The position numbers were made by a program, and so were the translations under genes. A stretch of DNA of 11,507 bases, taken from the IMG/VR virus record IMGVR_UViG_2740892442_000015, one strand, 5' to 3'. Below the pieces are notes generated by a model. The model was not told the DNA's origin, did not search any database, and saw only the letters and a program-made list of their open reading frames with translations. Below are positions 1 through 10,573 of the stretch, in pieces. Source of the DNA: a virus (taxonomy: Duplodnaviria > Heunggongvirae > Uroviricota > Caudoviricetes). The stretch's first letter is position 1; the number at the start of each line of letters is the position of its first letter.

Positions 1-468
1 TTTTGAATATGGAAATAAATCAATTATATTGCCAATTATTCCATCTTTTTGACAAAAGAGAATTATTATTAGATAAATGAAAGTAAACGTAATAAATGAG
101 ATGAAAACTTTCATAAATGCCATAAAGTTATATTTTAACGTGGGCATCTGTGTTTTTTTATGTTGTATTGACATCATCTGAAGAAACATCTCGGGTTTGG
201 ATAGTGTTGCAAATATTGTGAAACCAGCAATGAGAAAACCTAAGGTTGTCACTGCAAAGTTAAAACCAATCAAAGCCCAGTTTCTAATGTCAGATACTAA
301 ATGAGACATATCCTTCTCAATAAAAAAAGAGTTTGTTAATAAAAAAATAGATGCTGTGAGCAAAATGCAAATATGGAATGTACTAATAGTAATCCGTTTG
401 CAGAGCAAGTAAACATCCCAAAGGTTTTTCTCTTTGGTTATTTCTTTAGCATCTATTTTATTTATCAT
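1..468 (-). CDS. Partial ORF (first 156 codons; C-terminus lies beyond window start) encoding a predicted multi-pass membrane protein; last gene of the repressor-linked operon
   Basis: My own translation of the minus strand from ATG 468-466 to position 1 is open for 156 codons with no stop (MINKIDAKEITKEKNLWDVYLLCKRITISTFHICILLTASIFLLTNSFFIEKDMSHLVSDIRNWALIGFNFAVTTLGFLIAGFTIFATLSKPEMFLQMMSIQHKKTQMPTLKYNFMAFMKVFISFITFTFIYLIIILFCQKDGIIGNIIDLFPYSK...). The start overlaps the TGA stop of the upstream gene (ATGA at 465-468). It has several long hydrophobic stretches. It is absent from the supplied ORF track, probably because it has no stop inside the window. In this very AT-rich DNA an open frame of this length is unlikely by chance. 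Confidence 0.6.
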   Translation of the reverse strand, partial: MINKIDAKEITKEKNLWDVYLLCKRITISTFHICILLTASIFLLTNSFFIEKDMSHLVSDIRNWALIGFNFAVTTLGFLIAGFTIFATLSKPEMFLQMMSIQHKKTQMPTLKYNFMAFMKVFISFITFTFIYLIIILFCQKDGIIGNIIDLFPYSK

Positions 469-1493
469 CGACCAAACCTTTCATATATATTGCTAATAAT
501 TCTAATCGTCTTTTGTGAAAGAGAACGGGGTAGAGATATCTTACCTTCTTCTACAAGATTTTCATACCGCTCATAACTTTCATTTGCAGCTACTACCGTA
601 TCCTTTGATAATTCATTCATCTCACTTAACAAAACAAAGTCATCATTGCTACCTTTGATTATATCACCATTGTCATCATATCCTTTAATATTTATTCCTG
701 AATTAGCCAATCTGGTTGCTGATGTGAGTTGTTCTAAAACAGCACCATGATTCAAGCCTGAATCGGTGTTTGAAAAGCGAATAGATGTAGAAATACTTCC
801 CATTTCGTCTCCGGCACTTTCAAGTGACTCCCAAAATTCGTCGTTATCAATTTCTTCTTGATTTGTAGGGAGAAGTTTTACTGAGACATTTTGGATTTTA
901 TTAAAATTATCAATAAATTGCTCTAGGCTTTGTTTGTCAGTTAACGGCGTTATTCTTAGCTTCGGGCGTTTGATTTCGTTCCGTAAGCTTTTTTTAGTGA
1001 CTCGAGGTAAGTCAGGGTTTTCTTTGCGTTCTTCTTGTGCGGTTTCGTATAAATGAGATATGTATTTTTCATATTCTATGTTTAAGAAACACTGACTTGT
1101 TGACTGAAAGTTTTGAATTGTGGGAGCACCACTAACTTCCTTGCAAAGAATTAATCTGTGAGTGTTTAATATTAGAAGAAAGAAAGAGCTCGGGGCTGTT
1201 TCAAGCTCTTTATGATCTTCAACCAGATCAGCACCATCAAATACTTGTTCTCTGGTTAATAATGTATTCTTAATAATCCGACCTTTAATTCCGAGTACTG
1301 GGGGTGTTGCTTCTTCGTCAAGTATGACGCATTCAGTATCAATGAAAAAGAACTCTGATTTGTCAGATATTCTGCGGATGTTTGCCATCTCCAAAAAAGA
1401 GGGGAAAACAATTTCATCATAATAGTCTAGCAAAACATCATCACCAAAACGGAGAGTATAATTTCCAAATTCGAGTTTTTTTATAAAATCCAT
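465..1493 (-). CDS. Hypothetical 342-aa protein, acidic and Ser/Asn-rich, no motif I recognise (no P-loop, no tyrosine-recombinase signature); middle gene of the repressor-linked operon
   Basis: ORF from the track. A GAGG Shine-Dalgarno sits about 8 nt upstream of the ATG at 1493. It lies 15 nt downstream of the repressor gene on the same strand, and its stop overlaps the start of the next ORF. Spot counts give roughly 30 percent GC, far below the tail genes. Confidence 0.8.
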   Translation of the reverse strand: MDFIKKLEFGNYTLRFGDDVLLDYYDEIVFPSFLEMANIRRISDKSEFFFIDTECVILDEEATPPVLGIKGRIIKNTLLTREQVFDGADLVEDHKELETAPSSFFLLILNTHRLILCKEVSGAPTIQNFQSTSQCFLNIEYEKYISHLYETAQEERKENPDLPRVTKKSLRNEIKRPKLRITPLTDKQSLEQFIDNFNKIQNVSVKLLPTNQEEIDNDEFWESLESAGDEMGSISTSIRFSNTDSGLNHGAVLEQLTSATRLANSGINIKGYDDNGDIIKGSNDDFVLLSEMNELSKDTVVAANESYERYENLVEEGKISLPRSLSQKTIRIISNIYERFGR

Positions 1494-1508
1494 TACTATG
1501 CCTCAAGA

Positions 1509-2387
1509 TTAAATAGTACGGTACTGTGAGAAAATTTTGGCAACTAATTTTATATCTTCTTTTTCACAATCAAATGTTAAATCATCGTCTGTTACTCGAA
1601 GATTGCCTCCAGGTAATAGAAAAATTTGTTTTAACTTGAAATTATTTTGGTATTGAACAATCCATCTTCCGTCTTCAACATTAGCTTTATTCATGTGTGC
1701 AATATTTATGCAATGTTCGTCTTCAATTGCGAGTAAATCATTAAAATGAGGAAGCAGGGACTTATCTATCAATAAATGACCAGCATCGAAAATTTGATTG
1801 TCAATAAGTTTTACTTTAGGAATTTCTAAAGCTTCACTTTCTTCGCTTCCAAGTTTTTGCCCGCGCCCAGTTGCTAACCATAAAAGAGAAGTTCTTGTTT
1901 CCAACGAGCATCTTATGATCCAGTCAGCTGGGAATGTGTCTCGCAAGTATCTATTCGCCATTGTGCTTTTAGACACATTCAAATGGTCGGCAAGTTCTTG
2001 TCTTGTTTTAAAGCCATACGCTTCCATTAGCCTGTTTATCGCATTACGTCCACCTGAATCCAGATTTGGATGGTTCACAATTGGGTTCTCGTTGGTGGTG
2101 GCTTTGGGAACATATTGAACCAATGATGCTGGTTCCTCTAATTTAGCGGGAACTTCGGTATTCTTAGGAAATGGCACGCCTTTTCCGAATGAGAGCCACT
2201 CTATAGATGCTCCTGTTTCAATTGCACACTGAATTACCCAGTCAGCAGGAAATGCGTCACGCATCCAGCGCGTTCCCATAGTACTTGCAGATACATTGAA
2301 CTGTTCACATAGGGCTTGCCGCGTCTTGAATCCATACGCTTCAAGCATGCGCGTTATGACTGCCTGTCCTCCGTTTTTGAAATTCAT
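1509..2387 (-). CDS. Phage CI-type repressor-like protein with two tandem N-terminal HTH domains (186 CI-like family) and a C-terminal LexA/S24-like domain that appears degenerate
   Basis: Residues about 8-70 (VITRMLEAYGFKTRQALCEQFNVSASTMGTRWMRDAFPADWVIQCAIETGASIEWLSFGKG) and about 115-177 (AINRLMEAYGFKTRQELADHLNVSKSTMANRYLRDTFPADWIIRCSLETRTSLLWLATGRG) are about 60 percent identical to each other and match my memory of the phage CI repressor HTH domain. The C-terminal part (GRWIVQYQNNFKLKQIFLLPGGNLRV) resembles the LexA/CI S24 fold, but I see no G-x-S-M motif. The gene is divergent from an Apl/Cro-like gene. Confidence 0.8.
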   Translation of the reverse strand: MNFKNGGQAVITRMLEAYGFKTRQALCEQFNVSASTMGTRWMRDAFPADWVIQCAIETGASIEWLSFGKGVPFPKNTEVPAKLEEPASLVQYVPKATTNENPIVNHPNLDSGGRNAINRLMEAYGFKTRQELADHLNVSKSTMANRYLRDTFPADWIIRCSLETRTSLLWLATGRGQKLGSEESEALEIPKVKLIDNQIFDAGHLLIDKSLLPHFNDLLAIEDEHCINIAHMNKANVEDGRWIVQYQNNFKLKQIFLLPGGNLRVTDDDLTFDCEKEDIKLVAKIFSQYRTI

Positions 2388-2512
2388 CTAGTACGCCTTT
2401 GAGTAATATTGAGTTGATACTTCTCAAATGAAGAATTAATGTGTGCGAAAGTGAACTTGACGGTGTTAATCACCAGTTACCACACATCATGTTAATCGAG
2501 GAATCTTGCATC
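2388..2512. promoter_or_regulatory. Divergent intergenic switch region between the repressor gene and the Apl/Cox-like gene; likely carries both promoters and operators
   Basis: 125-nt gap between divergent start codons. TTGACG at 2457-2462 is a -35-like hexamer. The 8-mer TGTTAATC occurs twice (2464-2471 and 2490-2497). GGTGTTAATCACC at 2462-2474 has inverted 4-bp arms. A further TTAAT lies in the gaattaatgtg stretch just upstream. Confidence 0.45.
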
Positions 2513-2734
2513 ATGACTCCACATATTTCAATCACCTTAGCTGTTCCATCTGTTTCTATTGAGAAATACAGCGAACTGACTGGCTTATCTATCGACACCA
2601 TCAATGACATGCTGGCTGATGGACGTCTTATTCGCCATCGTCTCCGTAAGGATAAAAAGCGAGAAAAGGTGATGATCAATATCGCAGCAATGACTGTTGA
2701 TGCACTCGCTGAATGCAATTTGAGCATTAACTAG
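2513..2734 (+). CDS. Small HTH DNA-binding protein, Apl/Cox/Cro-like (73 aa)
   Basis: First gene transcribed away from the repressor. ATG at 2513 gives MTPHISITLAVPSVSIEKYSELTGLSIDTINDMLADGRL..., which contains an HTH-like segment. The track ORF starts at 2441 from an upstream codon, so the exact start is uncertain (another in-frame ATG lies at 2489). Confidence 0.55.
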   Translation: MTPHISITLAVPSVSIEKYSELTGLSIDTINDMLADGRLIRHRLRKDKKREKVMINIAAMTVDALAECNLSIN

Positions 2735-2748
2735 TTCCATTTTGGGTT

Positions 2749-3276
2749 ATGTCAGAGATGTCGAATATGTTTGATTACCAAGTTTCCAAACATCCACATT
2801 TTGATGAAGCCTGTCGTGCATTCGCATTGCGCCACAACCTGGTGCAACTGGCAGAACGTGCTGGCATGAATGTGCAGATTCTGCGGAACAAGCTGAACCC
2901 AGCTCAACCTCATTTATTAACCGCACCAGAAATCTGGCTGCTTACCGATCTGACTGAAGATTCAACGCTGGTAGATGGTTTTCTGGCACAGATTCATTGT
3001 CTGCCATGTGTACCGATTAATGAGGTGGCAAAAGAGAAACTGCCACATTACGTCATGAGTGCAACCGCAGAGATCGGGCGTGTTGCTGCAGGTGCGGTAT
3101 CTGGCGATGTAAAAACCAGTGCCGGTCGTCGTGATGCCATCAGCAGCATTAATTCTGTAACACGACTGATGGCGCTGGCGGCTGTTTCATTGCAGGCCCG
3201 TTTACAGGCTAACCCTGCGATGGCGAGTGCAGTTGATACTGTGACTGGCCTCGGTGCTTCATTCGGTTTGCTGTGA
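2749..3276 (+). CDS. Phage regulatory protein CII-like (phage 186 CII / CP76 family)
   Basis: 175-aa ORF. Segments such as [23 protein letters not shown] and [28 protein letters not shown] match my memory of the 186 CII family. It sits directly after the Apl-like gene, as in phage 186. An alternative start at ATG 2767 (MFDYQ...) is possible. Confidence 0.75.
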
Positions 3277-3283
3277 GGTGCTT

Positions 3284-3580
3284 ATGCTGACGAAAGAACC
3301 ATCATTTGCATCGCTGCTGGTAAAACAAAGCCCGGCAATGCACTACGGTCACGGCTGGATCATGGGAGAGGATGGTAAACGCTGGCATCCATGTCATTCA
3401 CAAGATGAATTGCTGTCTGAATTGACCACGAGAAAATGGAGAAAGTCCAAATGTATGCGGCAGAAAGTGAAGTGGTTTATCAGTTTCGTTACAGAGGGGA
3501 GAGTTATTCAGTACCTGAAGATGATTTGCTCTGTTGCTATCCGTCGTTGTCGGGCGATGGTAGCTACTTTTTCACGCTAA
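3284..3580 (+). CDS. Hypothetical small protein (98 aa from ATG 3284); coding status uncertain
   Basis: ATG at 3284 is preceded by GAGGTG and lies 8 nt after the CII-like stop. The C-terminal half overlaps the next ORF in another frame and has odd composition (rich in W, C, R, K). Confidence 0.3.
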   Translation: MLTKEPSFASLLVKQSPAMHYGHGWIMGEDGKRWHPCHSQDELLSELTTRKWRKSKCMRQKVKWFISFVTEGRVIQYLKMICSVAIRRCRAMVATFSR

Positions 3581-3675
3581 AGGATGGAACCTTTATACGT
3601 GGTGAAAAAGTACAAGAAGTGATGCGTATAAAGACATCACCTCTTGAACGTTATCGGCGAAGTATTTATCGGTAA
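3436..3675 (+). CDS. Hypothetical small protein (79 aa, or 74 aa from ATG 3451)
   Basis: ORF from the track. GGAG at 3437-3440 precedes the ATG at 3451. Amino-acid composition is balanced. It occupies the position of the small fil/dhr-type genes after cII in 186-like phages, but I do not recognise the sequence. Confidence 0.45.
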   Translation: MEKVQMYAAESEVVYQFRYRGESYSVPEDDLLCCYPSLSGDGSYFFTLKDGTFIRGEKVQEVMRIKTSPLERYRRSIYR

Positions 3676-3914
3676 CGATCTATCAGTGTCTGTATCAGAT
3701 GAGTGAATTCTTGTTGTTTAACCGAACCTAAAGGAAGTTTGTTTAATTCTTCGCGGAGGAGCTCAAAAAATGCAGATTGATTTGCTGAGTCAGTTCGAAA
3801 TAAGGAGTGGATCAGACCTGAAACAAGAATTCGTTGAACAGCAACCTCATCGCGAAGACTGGAGATCTCGTTTTCAAGTTGCTCTAAACGCTCTCTTTCA
3901 ACCGGGTTCAACAT
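3666..3914 (-). CDS. Hypothetical 82-aa protein with a coiled-coil-like N-terminus
   Basis: ORF from the track. On the minus strand an AGGA Shine-Dalgarno lies about 7 nt upstream of the ATG at 3914. It is divergent from the 113-aa ORF and its 3' end overlaps the plus-strand ORF ending at 3675 by 10 nt. Confidence 0.5.
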   Translation of the reverse strand: MLNPVERERLEQLENEISSLRDEVAVQRILVSGLIHSLFRTDSANQSAFFELLREELNKLPLGSVKQQEFTHLIQTLIDRYR

Positions 3915-3995
3915 TGATGATTCCTTCTAGCTATCAATATGTTGGTAATGGATCATATCAAAAATTTTTTAGTAGATGTGTTGTGGGATGCATAA

Positions 3996-4337
3996 ATGGC
4001 TATTGAAGGCGCTGCGGCGACTGTTCCATTAAGTCCCGGTGAACGCCTGAATGGACTTAATCACATAGCGGAATTAAGGGCGAAAGTATTTGGCCTGAAT
4101 ATTGAGTCAGAGCTTGAGCGGTTTATTAAAGATATGCGTGATCCACGGGATATCAATAATGAACAAAATAAACGGGCACTGGCTGCCATATTCTTTATGG
4201 CAAAAATTCCAGCTGAACGTCATAGCATCAGCATTAATGAGCTGACCACTGACGAAAAGCGGGAGCTGATTAAAGCAATGAATCATTTTCGTGCAGTGGT
4301 GAGCTTATTTCCCAGACGGCTAACCATGCCGAATTAA
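3996..4337 (+). CDS. Hypothetical 113-aa phage protein; lies just upstream of the tape measure region but could not be confirmed as a tail assembly chaperone
   Basis: ORF from the track with a weak Shine-Dalgarno (GGGA). I found no open -1 or +1 frame extending it toward the tape measure start, so a canonical chaperone frameshift arrangement is not supported. Confidence 0.55.
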   Translation: MAIEGAAATVPLSPGERLNGLNHIAELRAKVFGLNIESELERFIKDMRDPRDINNEQNKRALAAIFFMAKIPAERHSISINELTTDEKRELIKAMNHFRAVVSLFPRRLTMPN

Positions 4338-4404
4338 CCAACTAATGAAATTAATGGCGTAAACCCGCCGGGCATCCCTTTATCTAAATTCAGGAGAATT
4401 GATT

Positions 4405-4638
4405 ATGCGTAATATTGAAATCCTCACGACTAAAACCGGACCGGATGACGCAGGGCTTAATATTTTACTGACAGAGGCTCGTCTGGAAGAACGTCGGGCA
4501 AGGGCTGAAGCAATGGCAGCTCGCCTTGATAGCCTGGCGTGTCATATCACATCCCGCCAGCTAAACCACGTCAAAGCGGCAGAACTGCTGCGTGTAACTG
4601 CTGAAGCAATCCAGAACGAAGCGCAGGAGATCCACTAA
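4405..4638 (+). CDS. 77-aa ORF with a strong ribosome-binding site, in the same frame as the tape measure ORF and separated from it by one TAA; possibly the N-terminal part of a disrupted tape measure gene
   Basis: AGGAG at 4393-4397 lies 7 nt upstream of ATG 4405 (the track starts at TTG 4399). The stop TAA at 4636-4638 is followed two codons later by the tape measure ORF start in the same frame (4645-4405 = 240, a multiple of 3). The protein is helical and Ala/Arg/Glu-rich. Confidence 0.5.
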   Translation: MRNIEILTTKTGPDDAGLNILLTEARLEERRARAEAMAARLDSLACHITSRQLNHVKAAELLRVTAEAIQNEAQEIH

Positions 4639-4644
4639 TGGCTG

Positions 4645-7011
4645 ATGCAATGGATCTCGTACACCCGCAATATTGAACAGCTCGGTGATGCGCTGAACTA
4701 TCTGGATGATAACGCCATGTCGAAAGGGGCAGACATCATTGATGTGATGCAACGTCTGGGCGGTGTGGCTGACCGTCTGGATTATCGTAAAGCGGCGGCG
4801 CTGGGTTCCACCTTCCTGACACTGGGCGCTGCGCCAGAGGTTGCAGCCAGTGCAGCAAACGCGATGGTGCGTGAATTGTCCATTGCCACCATGCAAAGCA
4901 AGAGTTTCTTTGAAGGGATGAATCTGCTGAAACTCAATCCTGAAGTGATTGAAAAGCAGATGACGAAGGATGCGATGGGAACTATCCAGCGTGTGCTGGA
5001 GAAGGTGAACGCACTGCCGCAGGACAAGCGTCTGTCTGCCATGACCATGTTGTTTGGTAAAGAGTTTGGCGATGACGCGGCGAAACTGGCAAACAACCTG
5101 CCGGAACTACAGCGCCAGCTAAAACTGACAGCGGGCAATGATGCGCTCGGTTCCATGCAGAAAGAATCCGACATCAACAAGGACTCACTTTCTGCTCAGT
5201 GGTTGCTGGTTAAAACCGGAGCGCAGAATACCTTCAGCAGCCTGGGCGAAACGCTGCGCCAGCCGCTGATGGATATTCTGTACACGGTGAAAAGCGTTAC
5301 GGGAGCGTTGCGTCGCTGGGTGGAAGCTAACCCGGAACTGACGGGCACACTGATGAAAGTAGCCGCTATTGTGGCTGCGGTTACCGTAGGCCTCGGCACC
5401 TTGGCTGTGGCGCTGGCTGCAGTGCTGGGGCCGCTGGCAGTCATCCGTCTGGGATTCTCTGTGCTGGGCATCAGAACGTTACCTTCCGTTACGGCAGCAG
5501 TAACACGAACCAGCAGCGCGTTGTCCTGGCTGGCTGGCGCACCACTGGCACTGCTGCGACACGGGCTTGCTTCATCGGGTAACGCAGCGGGTTTACTTAC
5601 TGCGCCGTTGTCGTCTTTGCGCCGTACGGCATCACTGACGGGAAATGTCCTGAAAACTGTTGCAGGTGCGCCGGTTGCACTTTTGCGGTCTGGATTATCC
5701 GGTTTACGTGCGGTTGCTGTGATGTTTATGAATCCTCTGGCGGTACTGCGCGGTGGACTGACCGCTGCAGGTACGGTGCTGCGAGTACTGGCATCTGGTC
5801 CACTGGCGATGCTGCGCGTTGCCCTGTATGCCATATCTGGTCTGTTAGGTGCTCTGCTCAGTCCGATAGGTCTAGTGGTTACTGCACTGGCAGGCGTGGC
5901 GCTGGTTGTCTGGAAATACTGGCAACCCATCACCGCATTTCTCGGTGGCGTGGTGGAGGGATTCAAAGCGGCGGCAGGTCCCGTCAGTGCCGCATTCGAA
6001 CCACTTAAGCCTGTGTTCCAGTGGATTGGCGACAAAGTGCAGGCGCTGTGGGGCTGGTTTACTGACCTGCTGACGCCCGTTAAGTCGACCTCTGCCGAAC
6101 TGCAGAGTGCAGCGGCAATGGGGCGACGATTCGGGGAGGCCCTGGCGGAAGGGCTGAATATGGTCATGCATCCGCTGGACTCCCTGAAATCCGGCGTTTC
6201 CTGGTTGCTGGAGAAACTCGGCATTGTCAGTAAAGAGGCCGCAAAGGCAAAACTACCGGAAAGCGTGACGCGTCAGCAACCTGCGACGGTGAATGCAGAC
6301 GGCAAAGTGATGATGCCATCGGGTGGTTTTCCATCATGGGGATATGGCTTTGCGGGGATGTATGACAGCGGCGGGTATATCCCGCGCGGGCAGTTTGGCA
6401 TCGTCGGTGAAAACGGGCCGGAAATTGTTAACGGCCCGGCAAATGTGACCAGCCGGAGAAATACAGCTGCACTGGCTGCCGTTGTTGCCGGAATGATGGG
6501 CGTTGCTGCCGCGCCAGCAGAGCTTCCACCGTTGCACCCTTTGGCACTTCCCGCGAAAGGTGGAGAAGCAATTGTGAGTCGCGCAGCCACTGTGCCGCTC
6601 GTTCAACGGATTGAGGCACCGACGCAGATCATCATTCAGACGCAGCCAGGACAAAGTGCGCAGGATATTGCGCGGGAGGTGGCACGCCAGCTTGATGAAC
6701 GTGAACGCAGGCTGAAGCAAAAGCCAGGAGTAACTACAGCGATCAGGGGGGATACGACGCATGATGATGGTGCTGGGATTGTACGTGTTTATGCTGCGCA
6801 CCGTTCCGTATCAGGAACTGCAGTATCAACGCAGCTGGCGACATGCGGCAAACAGTCGGGTAAACCGACGTCCGTCCACGCAGTTTCTGGGACCGGAAAA
6901 CGACATGCTGACGCTTTCCGGTGTTCTTATGCCGGAGATAACAGGCGGCAGGCTGTCGTTGCTGGCACTGGAGCAGATGGCAGAACAGGGGAAAGCATGG
7001 CCCCTGATTGA
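4645..7011 (+). CDS. T: Phage tail tape measure protein (P2 gpT-like); probably disrupted at both ends, since the 3' 250 nt of this ORF overlap gpU
   Basis: The N-terminal region (GADIIDVMQRLGGVADRLDYRKAAALGSTFLTLGAAPEVAASAANAMVRELS) matches my memory of the tape measure core motif. A central hydrophobic region carries repeated xPLAxLRxGL motifs. It sits immediately upstream of gpU and gpD. The ATG at 4645 has no Shine-Dalgarno within normal spacing. Translation past about 6760 looks like out-of-frame junk and overlaps the recognisable gpU frame. Confidence 0.85.
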   Translation: MQWISYTRNIEQLGDALNYLDDNAMSKGADIIDVMQRLGGVADRLDYRKAAALGSTFLTLGAAPEVAASAANAMVRELSIATMQSKSFFEGMNLLKLNPEVIEKQMTKDAMGTIQRVLEKVNALPQDKRLSAMTMLFGKEFGDDAAKLANNLPELQRQLKLTAGNDALGSMQKESDINKDSLSAQWLLVKTGAQNTFSSLGETLRQPLMDILYTVKSVTGALRRWVEANPELTGTLMKVAAIVAAVTVGLGTLAVALAAVLGPLAVIRLGFSVLGIRTLPSVTAAVTRTSSALSWLAGAPLALLRHGLASSGNAAGLLTAPLSSLRRTASLTGNVLKTVAGAPVALLRSGLSGLRAVAVMFMNPLAVLRGGLTAAGTVLRVLASGPLAMLRVALYAISGLLGALLSPIGLVVTALAGVALVVWKYWQPITAFLGGVVEGFKAAAGPVSAAFEPLKPVFQWIGDKVQALWGWFTDLLTPVKSTSAELQSAAAMGRRFGEALAEGLNMVMHPLDSLKSGVSWLLEKLGIVSKEAAKAKLPESVTRQQPATVNADGKVMMPSGGFPSWGYGFAGMYDSGGYIPRGQFGIVGENGPEIVNGPANVTSRRNTAALAAVVAGMMGVAAAPAELPPLHPLALPAKGGEAIVSRAATVPLVQRIEAPTQIIIQTQPGQSAQDIAREVARQLDERERRLKQKPGVTTAIRGDTTHDDGAGIVRVYAAHRSVSGTAVSTQLATCGKQSGKPTSVHAVSGTGKRHADAFRCSYAGDNRRQAVVAGTGADGRTGESMAPD
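5520..5880 (+). repeat. Degenerate in-frame tandem repeats inside the tape measure gene
   Basis: Peptide motifs APLALLRHGL, APLSSLRRT, APVALLRSGL, NPLAVLRGGL and GPLAMLRVAL recur at intervals of about 20-25 residues. The corresponding DNA segments (ccactggcactgctgcg, ccgttgtcgtctttgcg, ccggttgcacttttgcg, cctctggcggtactgcg, ccactggcgatgctgcg) repeat at a period of about 65 nt. Confidence 0.5.
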
Positions 7012-7246
7012 AGGCAGCGGCACGATTTACGGCATGTATGTGATTGAGGGACTGAATCAGACTAAAACGGAGTTTTTCCGCGACGGTATGCCGCGCCGGA
7101 TTGAGTTCACCCTGTCGCTCAAACGGGTGGATGAATCCCTGTCCGATATGTTCGGTGATCTCAGTGCGCAACTGAATAATCTGCAGGACACGGCAACGTC
7201 TGCCTTAAGTGATATCAGTAAAACGGTGGGAGGGCTGCTGTCGTGA
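6761..7246 (+). CDS. U: Phage tail protein U (P2 gpU-like), 161 aa
   Basis: ORF from the track starting MMMVLGLYVFMLRTVPYQELQYQRSWRH..., which I recognise as P2 gpU-like. Its length is close to P2 gpU, and its stop overlaps the gpD start (GTGA at 7243-7246). Confidence 0.9.
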   Translation: MMMVLGLYVFMLRTVPYQELQYQRSWRHAANSRVNRRPSTQFLGPENDMLTLSGVLMPEITGGRLSLLALEQMAEQGKAWPLIEGSGTIYGMYVIEGLNQTKTEFFRDGMPRRIEFTLSLKRVDESLSDMFGDLSAQLNNLQDTATSALSDISKTVGGLLS

Positions 7247-8343
7247 ATTTCAGCTCAGAACTGCTTAACAAAGGCAACAAAACTCCCGCATTCAGCATCA
7301 GTATTGAGGGCAGGGATATCACCACTGTGCTGGATAACCGCCTGATGAGTTTGACGCTGACGGATAACCGGGGCTTTGAAGCGGACCAGCTTGATCTGGA
7401 GCTGGATGACGCTGACGGAAAAATCGTGCTGCCGCGCCGTGGTGCGGTCATTACGCTGGCGCTGGGCTGGAAGGGGCAGCCGCTTTTCCCGAAAGGGGCA
7501 TTCACAGTGGACGAGATTGAACACACTGGCGCACCGGACCGCCTGACTATCCGGGCGCGAAGTGCTGATTTTCGGGAAACGCTGAATACCCGCCGTGAAA
7601 AATCGTGGCATAAGACCACCGTCGGGGAAGTGGTGAAGGAAATAGCCGCGCGGCACAAGCTGAAGATGGCACTGGGTAAAGACCTGTCGGATAAGCCCGT
7701 GGAGCATATAGACCAGACTAATGAGAGTGACGGCAGTTTTCTGATGCGGCTGGCGCGACAGTACGGTGCCATCGCGTCGGTGAAAAATGGCAATCTGTTA
7801 TTCATCAGGCAGGGGCAGGGCAAAAGCGCCACTGGTAAACCTCTGCCAGTGATCACTATCACACGCAAGGACGGCGACAGTCACCGATTTACCCTGGCAG
7901 ATCGCGGAGCCTACACGGGCGTAATTGCCAGCTGGTTGCATACCCGCGAACCTGCGAAGAAAGAAAGCACCACGGTGAAGCGTAAGCGCAGAACTAAGAA
8001 GCAGAAGAAAGAGCCGGAAGCGAAGCAGGGCGATTACCTGGTGGGTACGGATGAAAACGTGCTGGTACTTAATCGCACTTATGCCAACCGGAGCAACGCC
8101 GAACGAGCGGCGAAAATGCAGTGGGAACGCCTGCAACGCGGCGTTGCGTCATTCTCGCTACAACTGGCGGAAGGGCGGGCAGATCTCTACACGGAAATGC
8201 CAGTGAAAGTCAGTGGCTTTAAACAGCCGATAGATGATGCGGAATGGACTATTACCACCCTGACGCATACTGTCAGCCCGGATAACGGTTTTACGACCAG
8301 TCTGGAGCTTGAAGTGAAGATTGATGATTTCGAAATGGAATGA
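7243..8343 (+). CDS. D: Phage tail protein D (P2 gpD-like, late control D family), 366 aa
   Basis: ORF from the track with a GTG start overlapping the gpU stop. It holds the gpD position between U and ogr, as in P2, and the sequence matches my memory of the family. Confidence 0.9.
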   Translation: MNFSSELLNKGNKTPAFSISIEGRDITTVLDNRLMSLTLTDNRGFEADQLDLELDDADGKIVLPRRGAVITLALGWKGQPLFPKGAFTVDEIEHTGAPDRLTIRARSADFRETLNTRREKSWHKTTVGEVVKEIAARHKLKMALGKDLSDKPVEHIDQTNESDGSFLMRLARQYGAIASVKNGNLLFIRQGQGKSATGKPLPVITITRKDGDSHRFTLADRGAYTGVIASWLHTREPAKKESTTVKRKRRTKKQKKEPEAKQGDYLVGTDENVLVLNRTYANRSNAERAAKMQWERLQRGVASFSLQLAEGRADLYTEMPVKVSGFKQPIDDAEWTITTLTHTVSPDNGFTTSLELEVKIDDFEME

Positions 8344-8433
8344 TTCTTCGCAATGGAGAACTTTTAAGTTTTCAAAATGGAATAATGCGGTATCATTATT
8401 GTGAATTTAGCAAAAATGGGGAGAACTCGAAAA

Positions 8434-8652
8434 ATGATGATTTGCCCACTGTGTGGAAGTGCCGCCCATACTCGCAGCAGTTTTCAGGTATCTTCATTGA
8501 CCAAAGAGCGTTACAACCAGTGCCAGAACATTAACTGCAGCCATACTTTTGTTACTCATGAAACTTTTGTTCGTTCGATTGCAACGCCAAAAGAGTCAAA
8601 TCCGGTTCAGCCGCATCCAATGAAATCAGGACAGGTGGCGCTCTCTCTTTGA
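8434..8652 (+). CDS. ogr: Ogr-type zinc-finger late transcription activator (P2 Ogr / 186 B family), 72 aa
   Basis: MMICPLCGSAAHTRSS...NQCQNINCSHTF carries the C-x2-C...C-x4-C zinc-finger pattern and resembles P2 Ogr in length and sequence. It is the last phage gene before host DNA, as in integrated P2. The track ORF starts upstream at 8401 from an alternative start codon. Confidence 0.85.
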   Translation: MMICPLCGSAAHTRSSFQVSSLTKERYNQCQNINCSHTFVTHETFVRSIATPKESNPVQPHPMKSGQVALSL

Positions 8653-8732
8653 CGCTGCCGCCATTTTGTCGCCATCGTTAAAAAACAGTGCTTCTAACAT
8701 CATGATTTTAAAGAGCATAAATTTCAGGCAAC

Positions 8733-8775
8733 AAAAAACCCATCAACCTTGAACCGAAATGGCGGGGTTGATGGG
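8733..8775 (-). terminator. Rho-independent terminator candidate for minus-strand transcription, probably the ybjL terminator
   Basis: Perfect 10-bp inverted repeat CCCATCAACC (8739-8748) and GGTTGATGGG (8766-8775). On the minus strand the stem is followed directly by TTTTTT (complement of the A run at 8733-8738). The loop is long (17 nt), but its outer bases can partly pair. Confidence 0.5.
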
Positions 8776-8887
8776 CTCCACAAAATGGGGACATCAAAGA
8801 AAAGCAGTGGCACTAATTAAGACTGATGCCCTGCGGAAAAGTTCTGCGGTTGTGCAAAAAAATTTCATTTTCAGGGCAACTTCAGTT

Positions 8888-10573
8888 TTATCCTAATCCT
8901 GGCCATACCATGACGATGATTGTCCCTGCCAGCGTCAGCAGGACGTTGGCGATTGCATAGGTGCCCGCATAGCCCAGCGCCGGGATGTTACTGCGAGCTG
9001 TATCACTGATGATCTCCATTGCCGGCGCGCAGGTACGTGCGCCCATCATTGCGCCGAACAACAGCGCGCGGTTCATTCGCAATACATAAGCACCGAACAA
9101 GAAACAGATAACCACGGGCACCAGACTGACAATCAATCCGGCAATCAACATCTGACCGCCAATCGCGCCCAGGCCGTTATTAATACCGCTACCGGCGCTC
9201 AGACCAACGCCTGCCATAAACACCATCAAGCCGAACTCTTTCACCATGCTTAATGCACCCTGCGGAATGTAACCGAAGGTCGGGTGGTTAGCACGCATAA
9301 AGCCCAGCATAATTCCGGCGAATAACAACCCGGCAGCGTTCCCCATGCCGAAACTGAATGTGCTGAACTGGAAGGTGATCATCCCGATCATCAGCCCAAT
9401 AACAAAGAAGGCGCAGAATGCCAGCAGGTCAGTGACCTGGCTGTGAATCGAGATAAAGCCGATGCGATCGGCGATGGTTTTTACGCGGCGGGCATCGCCG
9501 CTGACTTGTAAAACGTCACCTTTGTTAAGCACGACGTTGTCATCTATCGGCATCTCAATCTGGCTACGAATGACGCGGTTAAGGAAGCAACCGTGATCGG
9601 TCAACTTCAGTTGTGCGAGACGTTTACCTACAGCGTTATGGTTTTTAACGACCACTTCTTCAGTGACGATACGCATGTCGAGAAGGTCACGATCGAAAAC
9701 TTCTTTACCGTTACGGAAGCTGGGATCGAGTCGGGCATGGGCGTCGGGATAGCCTACCAACGCTATTTCATCGCCCATTTGTAGCACGGCATCACCGTCT
9801 GGATTTGCCAGAATCCCGTTACGTCGAATACGTTCAATGTAGCAGCCGGTTTGTCGATAAATACCCAGTTCACGCAGATTTTTGCCGTCGGTCCAGGCCA
9901 CCAGTTCCGGGCCGACGCGATAGGCGCGGATCACCGGTAAATAAACCTTACGGTTGGCATCAGTGTCCAGGCCACGTTCGCGGGCGATTTGCTGGGCGCT
10001 GGTCTGTAAGTCCTGATGCTGCAATTTCGGCAAGTAACGCGCACCAACAATCAAACTCACCAGACCGATTAAATAGGTTAAGGCATACCCGAGGCTCAGA
10101 TTATCCAGTGCCAGTGAGAGCTGCCTGCTTTCCATGCCGGAATGACGCAGTGTATCGCCAGCACCGACCAGAACCGGTGTCGACGTCATAGAGCCTGCTA
10201 ACATACCGGCCGTCAGGCCAATATCCCAGCCAAACAGCTTACCTAACCCTAAGGCGATCACCAGCGCACTGCCAACCATCACCAGTGCTAACATTAGGTA
10301 ATTTTTCCCATCGCGAAAAAAAATGGAAAAAAAGTTCGGTCCGGCTTCGACCCCGACGCAGAAAATAAACAGCATAAAGCCAAGATTAAGCGCATCGGTG
10401 TTAATGCTGAAATGTTGTTGGCCTAATAACAGCGATACGACTAAAACGCCAATGGAATTACCCAGTTGGATCGAACCAAGTCGTAACTTTCCGAGACATA
10501 GCCCAAGCGCGAGGACCACAAATAATAACAGAATGTAATTCCCATTTAACAATTCGGCGACGTTTATATTCAC
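8888..10573 (-). CDS. ybjL: Putative transport protein YbjL (AAE-family membrane transporter with internal RCK/TrkA-C-like domains), 561 aa
   Basis: ORF from the track. The length and sequence ([25 protein letters not shown]...) match my memory of E. coli YbjL. Hydrophobic N- and C-terminal blocks flank a soluble central region. It is adjacent to ybjM and grxA, as in the E. coli chromosome. Confidence 0.93.

Follow-up and report, generated by a model that had tools for sequence, protein, structure and literature searches.

Temperate phages are known to attach at the 3′ ends of small RNA genes, among them those for tRNAs, tmRNA, CyaR, SdsR and RybB, and to bring a replacement 3′ end with them. 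Integrases directed at the ends of tRNA or tmRNA genes (3′ side) follow this logic and regenerate the gene. The att sites of phage P2 comprise a 27-nt core and arm repeats, and RybB is an important envelope-stress small RNA. In Escherichia coli, rybB lies between ybjK (rcdA) and ybjL, and has a Rho-independent terminator and conserved σE motifs (Papenfort 2006, PMC1804206). The "rybB ncRNA" was listed as the insertion site of the P2-like prophages Rybb*W, Rybb*B and Rybb*Cr in E. coli W, B and Crooks, respectively (Archer et al. 2011, PMC3032704), and Table 2 of the same study assigns P2 itself, as well as the K-12 remnant ogr-D′, to the "cyaR RNA". The P2-related prophage NC-MV of E. coli NC101 was likewise found integrated between ybjL and rcdA (2026 paper, PMC12803456). 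Both the site and the fact that this phage family uses it are already known, and the attachment site described below is in that respect an ordinary feature. PMC3032704 and PMC12803456 give no core sequence, and the core is defined here. What is added here is only the base-level core for this locus, with corrections to the identity of the hairpin at the junction and to the status of an imperfect repeat that had been flagged there.

The stretch of DNA analysed here, referred to as the window, is 11,507 nucleotides long. A near-identical locus is present in E. coli TUM10008 (NZ_CP135658.1, 4454108-4465615), which we examined with 6-kb flanks (locus L004), alongside the empty-site locus of K-12 (locus L001). 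According to the annotation of the TUM10008 locus, window positions 1-8729 belong to a P2/186-type prophage remnant of ~10.2 kb. The gene order in L004 starts with the host genes mdfA, ybjH, ybjI, ybjJ and rcdA, continues with int, three hypothetical genes, CI, (apl/cox-like), CII, fil and further early genes, and ends with a truncated tape measure gene T, U, D and ogr before the host genes ybjL, ybjM and grxA. This places attL between rcdA and int, and attR between ogr and ybjL. The order int ... D-ogr is typical of P2-like prophages, with the tyrosine recombinase gene beside the other junction. The phage content of the window itself consists of cargo ORFs, 186-type CI, CII, Fil, the truncated T, U, D and ogr, while the integrase and attL are situated 0.3-1.45 kb to the left of window position 1.

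The integrase gene (L004 4645-5697, outside the window) lies 75 nt from the attL core and encodes a protein with the Pfam domains PF00589 (Phage_integrase) and PF24624 (Int_N). Its product shares 98-98.6% identity with the integrases of Elveevirus-type phages (4LV2017-type Klebsiella phages, Kp4880-1) and of vB_EcoM-813R9, compared with ~49% to the HP2 integrase and 38-39% to that of P2. At the other end of the element, the last phage gene before attR is the late-gene activator ogr (8434-8652, plus strand), which was identified by Pfam (PF04606, Ogr_Delta, E-value 5e-22) and RefSeq.

We are highly confident that window positions 8653-8743 represent the attR of a P2/186-family (Peduoviridae) prophage that used a P2/HP1-type tyrosine integrase and is inserted at the 3′ end of rybB, between rcdA (ybjK) and ybjL. 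A three-way comparison of attB, attL and attR revealed a single stretch common to all of them, the 14-mer AACAAAAAACCCAT at 8730-8743, which is identical in the three sites. This 14-mer occurs twice in the TUM10008 locus (L004 4557 and 14731, the latter corresponding to window 8730) and once in the K-12 locus (L001 3014). The attL copy is located 10,174 bp upstream of the attR copy, outside the window. The empty site in K-12 reads GTAGTAGATAAGTTTTAGAT + AACAAAAAACCCAT + CAACCTTGAACC, attL reads GTAGTAGATAAGTTTTAGAT + AACAAAAAACCCAT + TTATGTAAACGGGTTAATG, and attR reads TTTTAAAGAGCATAAATTTCAGGC + AACAAAAAACCCAT + CAACCTTGAACC, so that the core sits exactly on both breakpoints of homology to the empty site. 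Phage-specific bases end at 8729 and host-specific bases start at 8744.

The preliminary description of this DNA had placed the right end of the prophage between the ogr stop codon at 8652 and a hairpin downstream of it, and had proposed an alignment with a prophage-free genome to define attR and its core. The alignment with K-12 did define them, with the core at 8730-8743, and the junction indeed falls in that interval, 8729 being the last phage-only base. Strand exchange took place within 8730-8743, a crossover region that overlaps the first 5 nt of the hairpin arm; the exact exchange points would lie somewhere in these 14 nt. Similarity to the empty site extends beyond the core, as attR and the K-12 attB agree at 23/27 positions over 8717-8743 (ATAAATTTCAGGCAACAAAAAACCCAT versus ATAAGTTTTAGATAACAAAAAACCCAT), including 9/13 positions to the left of the core. 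Because of this resemblance, megablast alignments to empty-site genomes begin at 8717, ahead of the short 14-nt identity that E. coli shares with the phage.

In K-12, rcdA is directly followed by ybjL without an intervening prophage (locus L001), as the preliminary description had stated. Its expectation of a strain-specific insertion was also borne out by the intact attB in 4227/5426 complete E. coli genomes. An intact site is lacking in ~22% of the genomes, which may be of use for prophage boundary calling. In the split genomes that were listed, the match to attB stops at L001 3027, the last base of the core. D-ogr adjoins ybjL in 1115 genomes, as it does in the window, and the junction was identical in every occupied genome that was examined or listed.

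A search with the Rfam model for RybB (RF00110) identified what the integrase had targeted. The match spans 8730-8808 on the minus strand and covers model positions 1-79 of 79 with 105.3 bits, against a gathering score of 40; the empty site of K-12 obtained a score identical to that of the window. The match ends at 8730, the left edge of the core, and the att core therefore corresponds to the last 14 nt of rybB (AUGGGUUUUUUGUU, minus strand), which comprise the 3′ stem arm and the U-tract of the terminator. The gene for this σE-dependent, Hfq-binding small RNA is intact in the window (8730-8811, minus strand), where we take G8811 to be its 5′ end based on the known GCCACUGC start. A putative σE promoter was read by eye against the σE consensus at 8818-8844 (minus strand), with a -35 element GAACTT (8844-8839), a 16-nt spacer and a -10 element TCTTA (8822-8818) that is positioned 6 nt before the start at 8811.

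The hairpin at 8739-8775 (minus strand) is the Rho-independent terminator of rybB. It contains a 10-bp inverted repeat (CCCATCAACC/GGTTGATGGG at 8739-8748 and 8766-8775), and the minus-strand fold has a 12-bp stem with a free energy of -24.1 kcal/mol (z -2.6), followed by U6 within UUUUUUGUU (8738-8730). A simple terminator scan of 8300-9100 found none, as its loop limit of 3-8 nt excludes a hairpin with a 17-nt loop. The assignment as a terminator therefore rests on the fold and on the Rfam model with its consensus structure.

The preliminary description had given the position of this hairpin correctly and had named it the ybjL terminator, which leaves its identity incomplete. A rival reading would see nothing more than a ybjL terminator in the hairpin, an intergenic terminator as the target of the phage, and rybB as incidental. 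The host gene ybjL, identified from its ORF and annotation as an aspartate:alanine antiporter (8888-10573), is on the same strand and ends 113 nt upstream of the hairpin. As there is no other terminator between the ybjL stop codon and rybB, read-through from ybjL probably also ends at this hairpin. Still, the full-length covariance-model match of 105 bits stops exactly at the core boundary, a putative σE-type promoter separates ybjL from the hairpin, and the site is named rybB in the literature, all of which makes it very unlikely that rybB is incidental. The two descriptions are compatible in so far as the phage recognises a DNA sequence and not the identity of a gene, and we retain rybB as the gene whose 3′ end is occupied.

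The sequence of rybB is the same in the lysogen and the non-lysogen. Only 14 nt of it are duplicated, not the gene, and an Rfam scan found no RybB-like match at attL or in the phage attP loci. The gene stays intact in lysogens, and we infer that RybB expression is unaffected by the integration.

We reconstructed an attP of 314 nt by joining the core to the phage halves of attR and attL. This sequence is contiguous in Klebsiella phage KP12, where it aligns over 314/314 nt at 97.5% identity between ogr and int. Escherichia phage ESSI2_ev040 has a diverged version (~74% identity) that is likewise contiguous. Klebsiella phage 4LV2017 (Elveevirus, KY271398) was deposited in prophage order, with attL annotated by the depositors as GCAGGCAACAAAAAACCCAT and attR as CAGGCAACAAAAAACCCAT. 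To the right of its attR follows host DNA that corresponds in Klebsiella to the window from 8744 on and represents the terminator of Klebsiella rybB. Together, the annotated sites and this flank indicate that the identity between phage and host amounts to 19-20 nt in Klebsiella, (G)CAGGCAACAAAAAACCCAT, versus 14 nt in E. coli. The att/int module is shared with Klebsiella phages, with a longer core identity there, which may likewise be of use for prophage boundary calling.

These comparisons suggest how the element may have entered the chromosome. The attP of the phage contains AAATTTCAGGCAACAAAAAACCCAT, in which the U-tract and 3′ stem arm of the terminator of its own int gene mimic the last 14 nt of rybB (19 nt in Klebsiella). 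Directly downstream of int, attL contains a phage-supplied hairpin (AACCCGUUUACAUAAAUGGGUUUUUUGUU, minus strand) of 9 bp followed by U6 (-9.0 kcal/mol), and because of this position the core in the free phage provides the int terminator with its 3′ arm and U-tract, just as it does for the rybB terminator in the host. Exchange inside the common AACAAAAAACCCAT regenerates both terminators and gives two products. At attR, rybB is complete, has a hairpin and U-tract of its own, and continues into DNA of the phage P arm and ogr; at attL, the phage hairpin and U-tract end int and are followed by host DNA and rcdA. Binding sites for the proteins involved (arm-type, IHF and core-type) are predicted from sequence.

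In free phage genomes, the phage-derived P arm of attR (8653-8729) continues directly into the P′ arm and int. It opens with a conserved 22-mer, CGCTGCCGCCATTTTGTCGCCA (8653-8674, plus strand), in which GYCGCCA occurs twice, 11 nt apart. The P′ arm contains a second copy with one mismatch, embedded in the last part of the int coding sequence (L004 4663-4684). Two copies per attP were found both in the window element and in ESSI2_ev040 (L007 1150-1169 and 1333-1352), where none would be expected by chance. In one alignment of diverged arms, the 22-mer is invariant while its flanks diverge; in ESSI2_ev040, it carries a single change (CTGTCGCC), again with diverged flanks. The motif CGCTGCCGCCAYTTTGTCGCCA (20-22 nt) is a feature of both attP arms in three diverged arm variants, with one copy directly after the ogr stop codon and the other within the int 3′ coding end. 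The P′ arm additionally contains two copies of a conserved AACAATAAGTTAG.

A less likely alternative is that the 20-mer after ogr is a mere relic of an int 3′ end. We do not favour this, as non-coding P arms keep the 20-mer unchanged even though their flanks have diverged. Conservation of the 20-22-mer on both arms suggests a function, and we consider the 22-mer on both arms and the AACAATAAGTTAG pair to be candidate sites for arm-type integrase binding or for accessory factors. Two further ideas strike us as unlikely. One is that CGCTGCCGCCAYTTTGTCGCCA is more than an ordinary arm-type integrase site and, for example, couples integrase binding to int expression or termination, or marks a boundary for swaps of the att/int module and cargo between Peduoviridae. 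Separately, the phage DNA that follows the RybB U-tract might subtly alter the formation of the RybB 3′ end in roughly one fifth of E. coli strains.

The left edge of the P arm is a mosaic boundary, as homology to E. coli 2c3 resumes at window 8653 after an extra ORF. This ORF of 120 aa lies between ogr and the P arm (L009 1947-2309). In ESSI2_ev040, an abortive-infection family gene replaces ogr (L007 305-1123). The gap between ogr and the P arm is a cargo hotspot, and the boundary of the att module corresponds to window 8653 each time.

At the junction, the preliminary description had flagged an imperfect direct repeat that brackets the hairpin, and had offered it as a possible remnant or duplication of the att core. 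A text match located both strings as claimed, AAATTTCAGGCAAC at 8719-8732 (copy 1) and AAATTTCATTTTCAGGGCAAC at 8860-8880 (copy 2). Their best gapped alignment is TTTCA-GGCAAC versus TTTCAGGGCAAC, and the longest exact word in common is the 8-mer AAATTTCA. When the host side was shuffled, 12/2000 shuffles scored as well for that single 14-mer query, and 25/300 when any P-arm 14-mer was allowed as query. Our repeat search did not report the 8719-8732/8860-8880 pair. The repeat is real as text and not convincingly above chance, its statistical support being marginal.

The two copies also differ in origin. Copy 1 is composed of 11 phage bases (8719-8729) and the first 3 bases of the core, lies in the contiguous attP of KP12 and is absent from the K-12 empty-site locus. 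Its AAATTTCA part is not conserved in the attP of ESSI2_ev040, which reads ATATAACAGGCAAC. Copy 2 belongs to the host DNA that separates the ybjL stop codon from the rybB promoter, and K-12 has it unchanged at L001 3144. The preliminary description had stated that its reading would fall if the repeat were present at the empty site of prophage-free strains and the junction mapped elsewhere. Copy 2 is indeed present at the empty site; the junction, as described above, lies inside the interval that had been given.

Could copy 2 be a degenerate secondary attB, or a scar left when a related phage once integrated and excised? It is only 130 bp from the real attB and is in part similar to the phage side of the core region (TTTCAGGGCAAC versus TTTCAGGCAAC). 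Conversely, copy 2 is followed by TTCAGTTTTATCC and not by the shared core AAAAAACCCAT. The likeness moreover concerns the phage-specific half, which need not match attB, and where attB of E. coli and attP differ at 4/13 positions. Given this, the marginal statistics of the similarity, and the fact that, among the E. coli matches listed, all splits of the locus fell at the rybB core, we regard a secondary site or scar at copy 2 as extremely unlikely. There is next to no chance that the pair is an att-core duplication or remnant from integration: the exact 8-mer, the wider TTTCAGG(G)CAAC and the few shuffles that scored as well with the single query speak for it, but a duplication arising from integration would bracket the prophage and not 130 bp of host DNA, both copies are at the same prophage end, only copy 2 is in the empty site, copy 1 is ordinary phage attP whose 8-mer is not kept in ESSI2_ev040, 25/300 shuffles reach the score once scanning is allowed for, and the true duplicated core occupies both ends of the element. 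The core is the 14-mer AACAAAAAACCCAT, present at 8730-8743 and, at the other prophage end, in attL. The practical use of these results is mainly correct annotation, with the exact junction core at 8730-8743, the hairpin assigned to rybB and the flagged repeat treated as irrelevant.

The prophage itself is a defective remnant that keeps int, both att sites, the immunity region and T′-U-D-ogr. An internal deletion junction at window 4663 joins the early region, after the DUF2732 gene, to the middle of the tape measure gene T. Compared with 4LV2017 by blastn, 23.6 kb are missing (positions 5786-29358), and at the TUM10008 locus the tape measure is annotated as "missing N-terminus". Since the remnant is without most phage genes, the integration is historical.

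Genes absent from the window prophage include those for replication, head, lysis, baseplate, fibre, sheath and tube. The deletion creates a fused ORF of 788 aa (window 4645-7011) that starts 18 nt upstream of the junction at 4663. The window differs from TUM10008 by a single substitution, G for A at 920, through which a stop codon is lost and two annotated ORFs merge into one of 342 aa (465-1493, minus strand), and by a 1-nt deletion near 6716 that shifts the 3′ end of the T pseudogene. The LH10-b-1 prophage, which occupies the same rybB site, has a different internal deletion in which gpM is fused to the tape measure gene (L002 16141-18451). This difference implies that prophages at the rybB site have decayed independently, more than once.

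Accessory or defence genes are often found beside int in P2-like prophages. The cargo ORFs between int and CI, of 342 aa (465-1493, minus strand) and 226 aa (L004 5788-6468, minus strand), had no family in Pfam or PADLOC. At 292 aa, the CI repressor (1509-2387, minus strand) exceeds the 189-aa CI of the related LH10-b-1 prophage. It matches the Phage_CI_repr HTH domain in two stretches, in addition to the CI C-terminal domain, and may represent a variant with tandem HTHs. Window 3415-3994 has no match in the LH10-b-1 prophage and contains an ORF of 82 aa (3666-3914, minus strand) between fil and the DUF5347 gene. Neither Pfam nor PADLOC gave a family for this ORF, which probably represents a small moron. 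Phage 4LV2017, whose att/int module is the same, encodes an RNA-directed DNA polymerase (L006 10905-12888), and retron Ec86 is noted in the prophage at the rybB site of E. coli B (PMC3032704). Retron or reverse transcriptase cargo may be recurrent in this phage group.

How does this element compare with the systems described before? The Rybb*W, Rybb*B, Rybb*Cr and NC-MV prophages, which we compared by their descriptions, belong to the same phage family and use the same chromosomal site. The window element differs from them as a remnant of 10.2 kb that has lost 23.6 kb internally and whose CI/CII/Fil immunity region is of the 186 type. Its attP arms are shared in near-identical form with 4LV2017, KP12 and vB_EcoM-813R9, and in KP12 the hit to the reconstructed attP also includes the matching int 3′ end. 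These three are full length, at 33-35 kb, in contrast to the remnant.

The arrangement of P2 at locH/cyaR is alike in having a Peduoviridae tyrosine integrase, the 3′ end of a small RNA gene as target and ogr adjoining the junction, and is unlike in its integrase (38-39% identity), its core and the small RNA gene concerned. HP1 and HP2 of Haemophilus, as well as integrases that target tRNA or tmRNA genes, also rely on a phage copy of the 3′ end of a small structured RNA, with integration regenerating the gene, and HP2 Int, at 49% identity, was the closest classic named phage integrase among the matches listed. The window element departs from the HP1/HP2 type in that its target is the terminator of an Hfq-dependent small RNA and not a tRNA, with only 14-19 nt duplicated.
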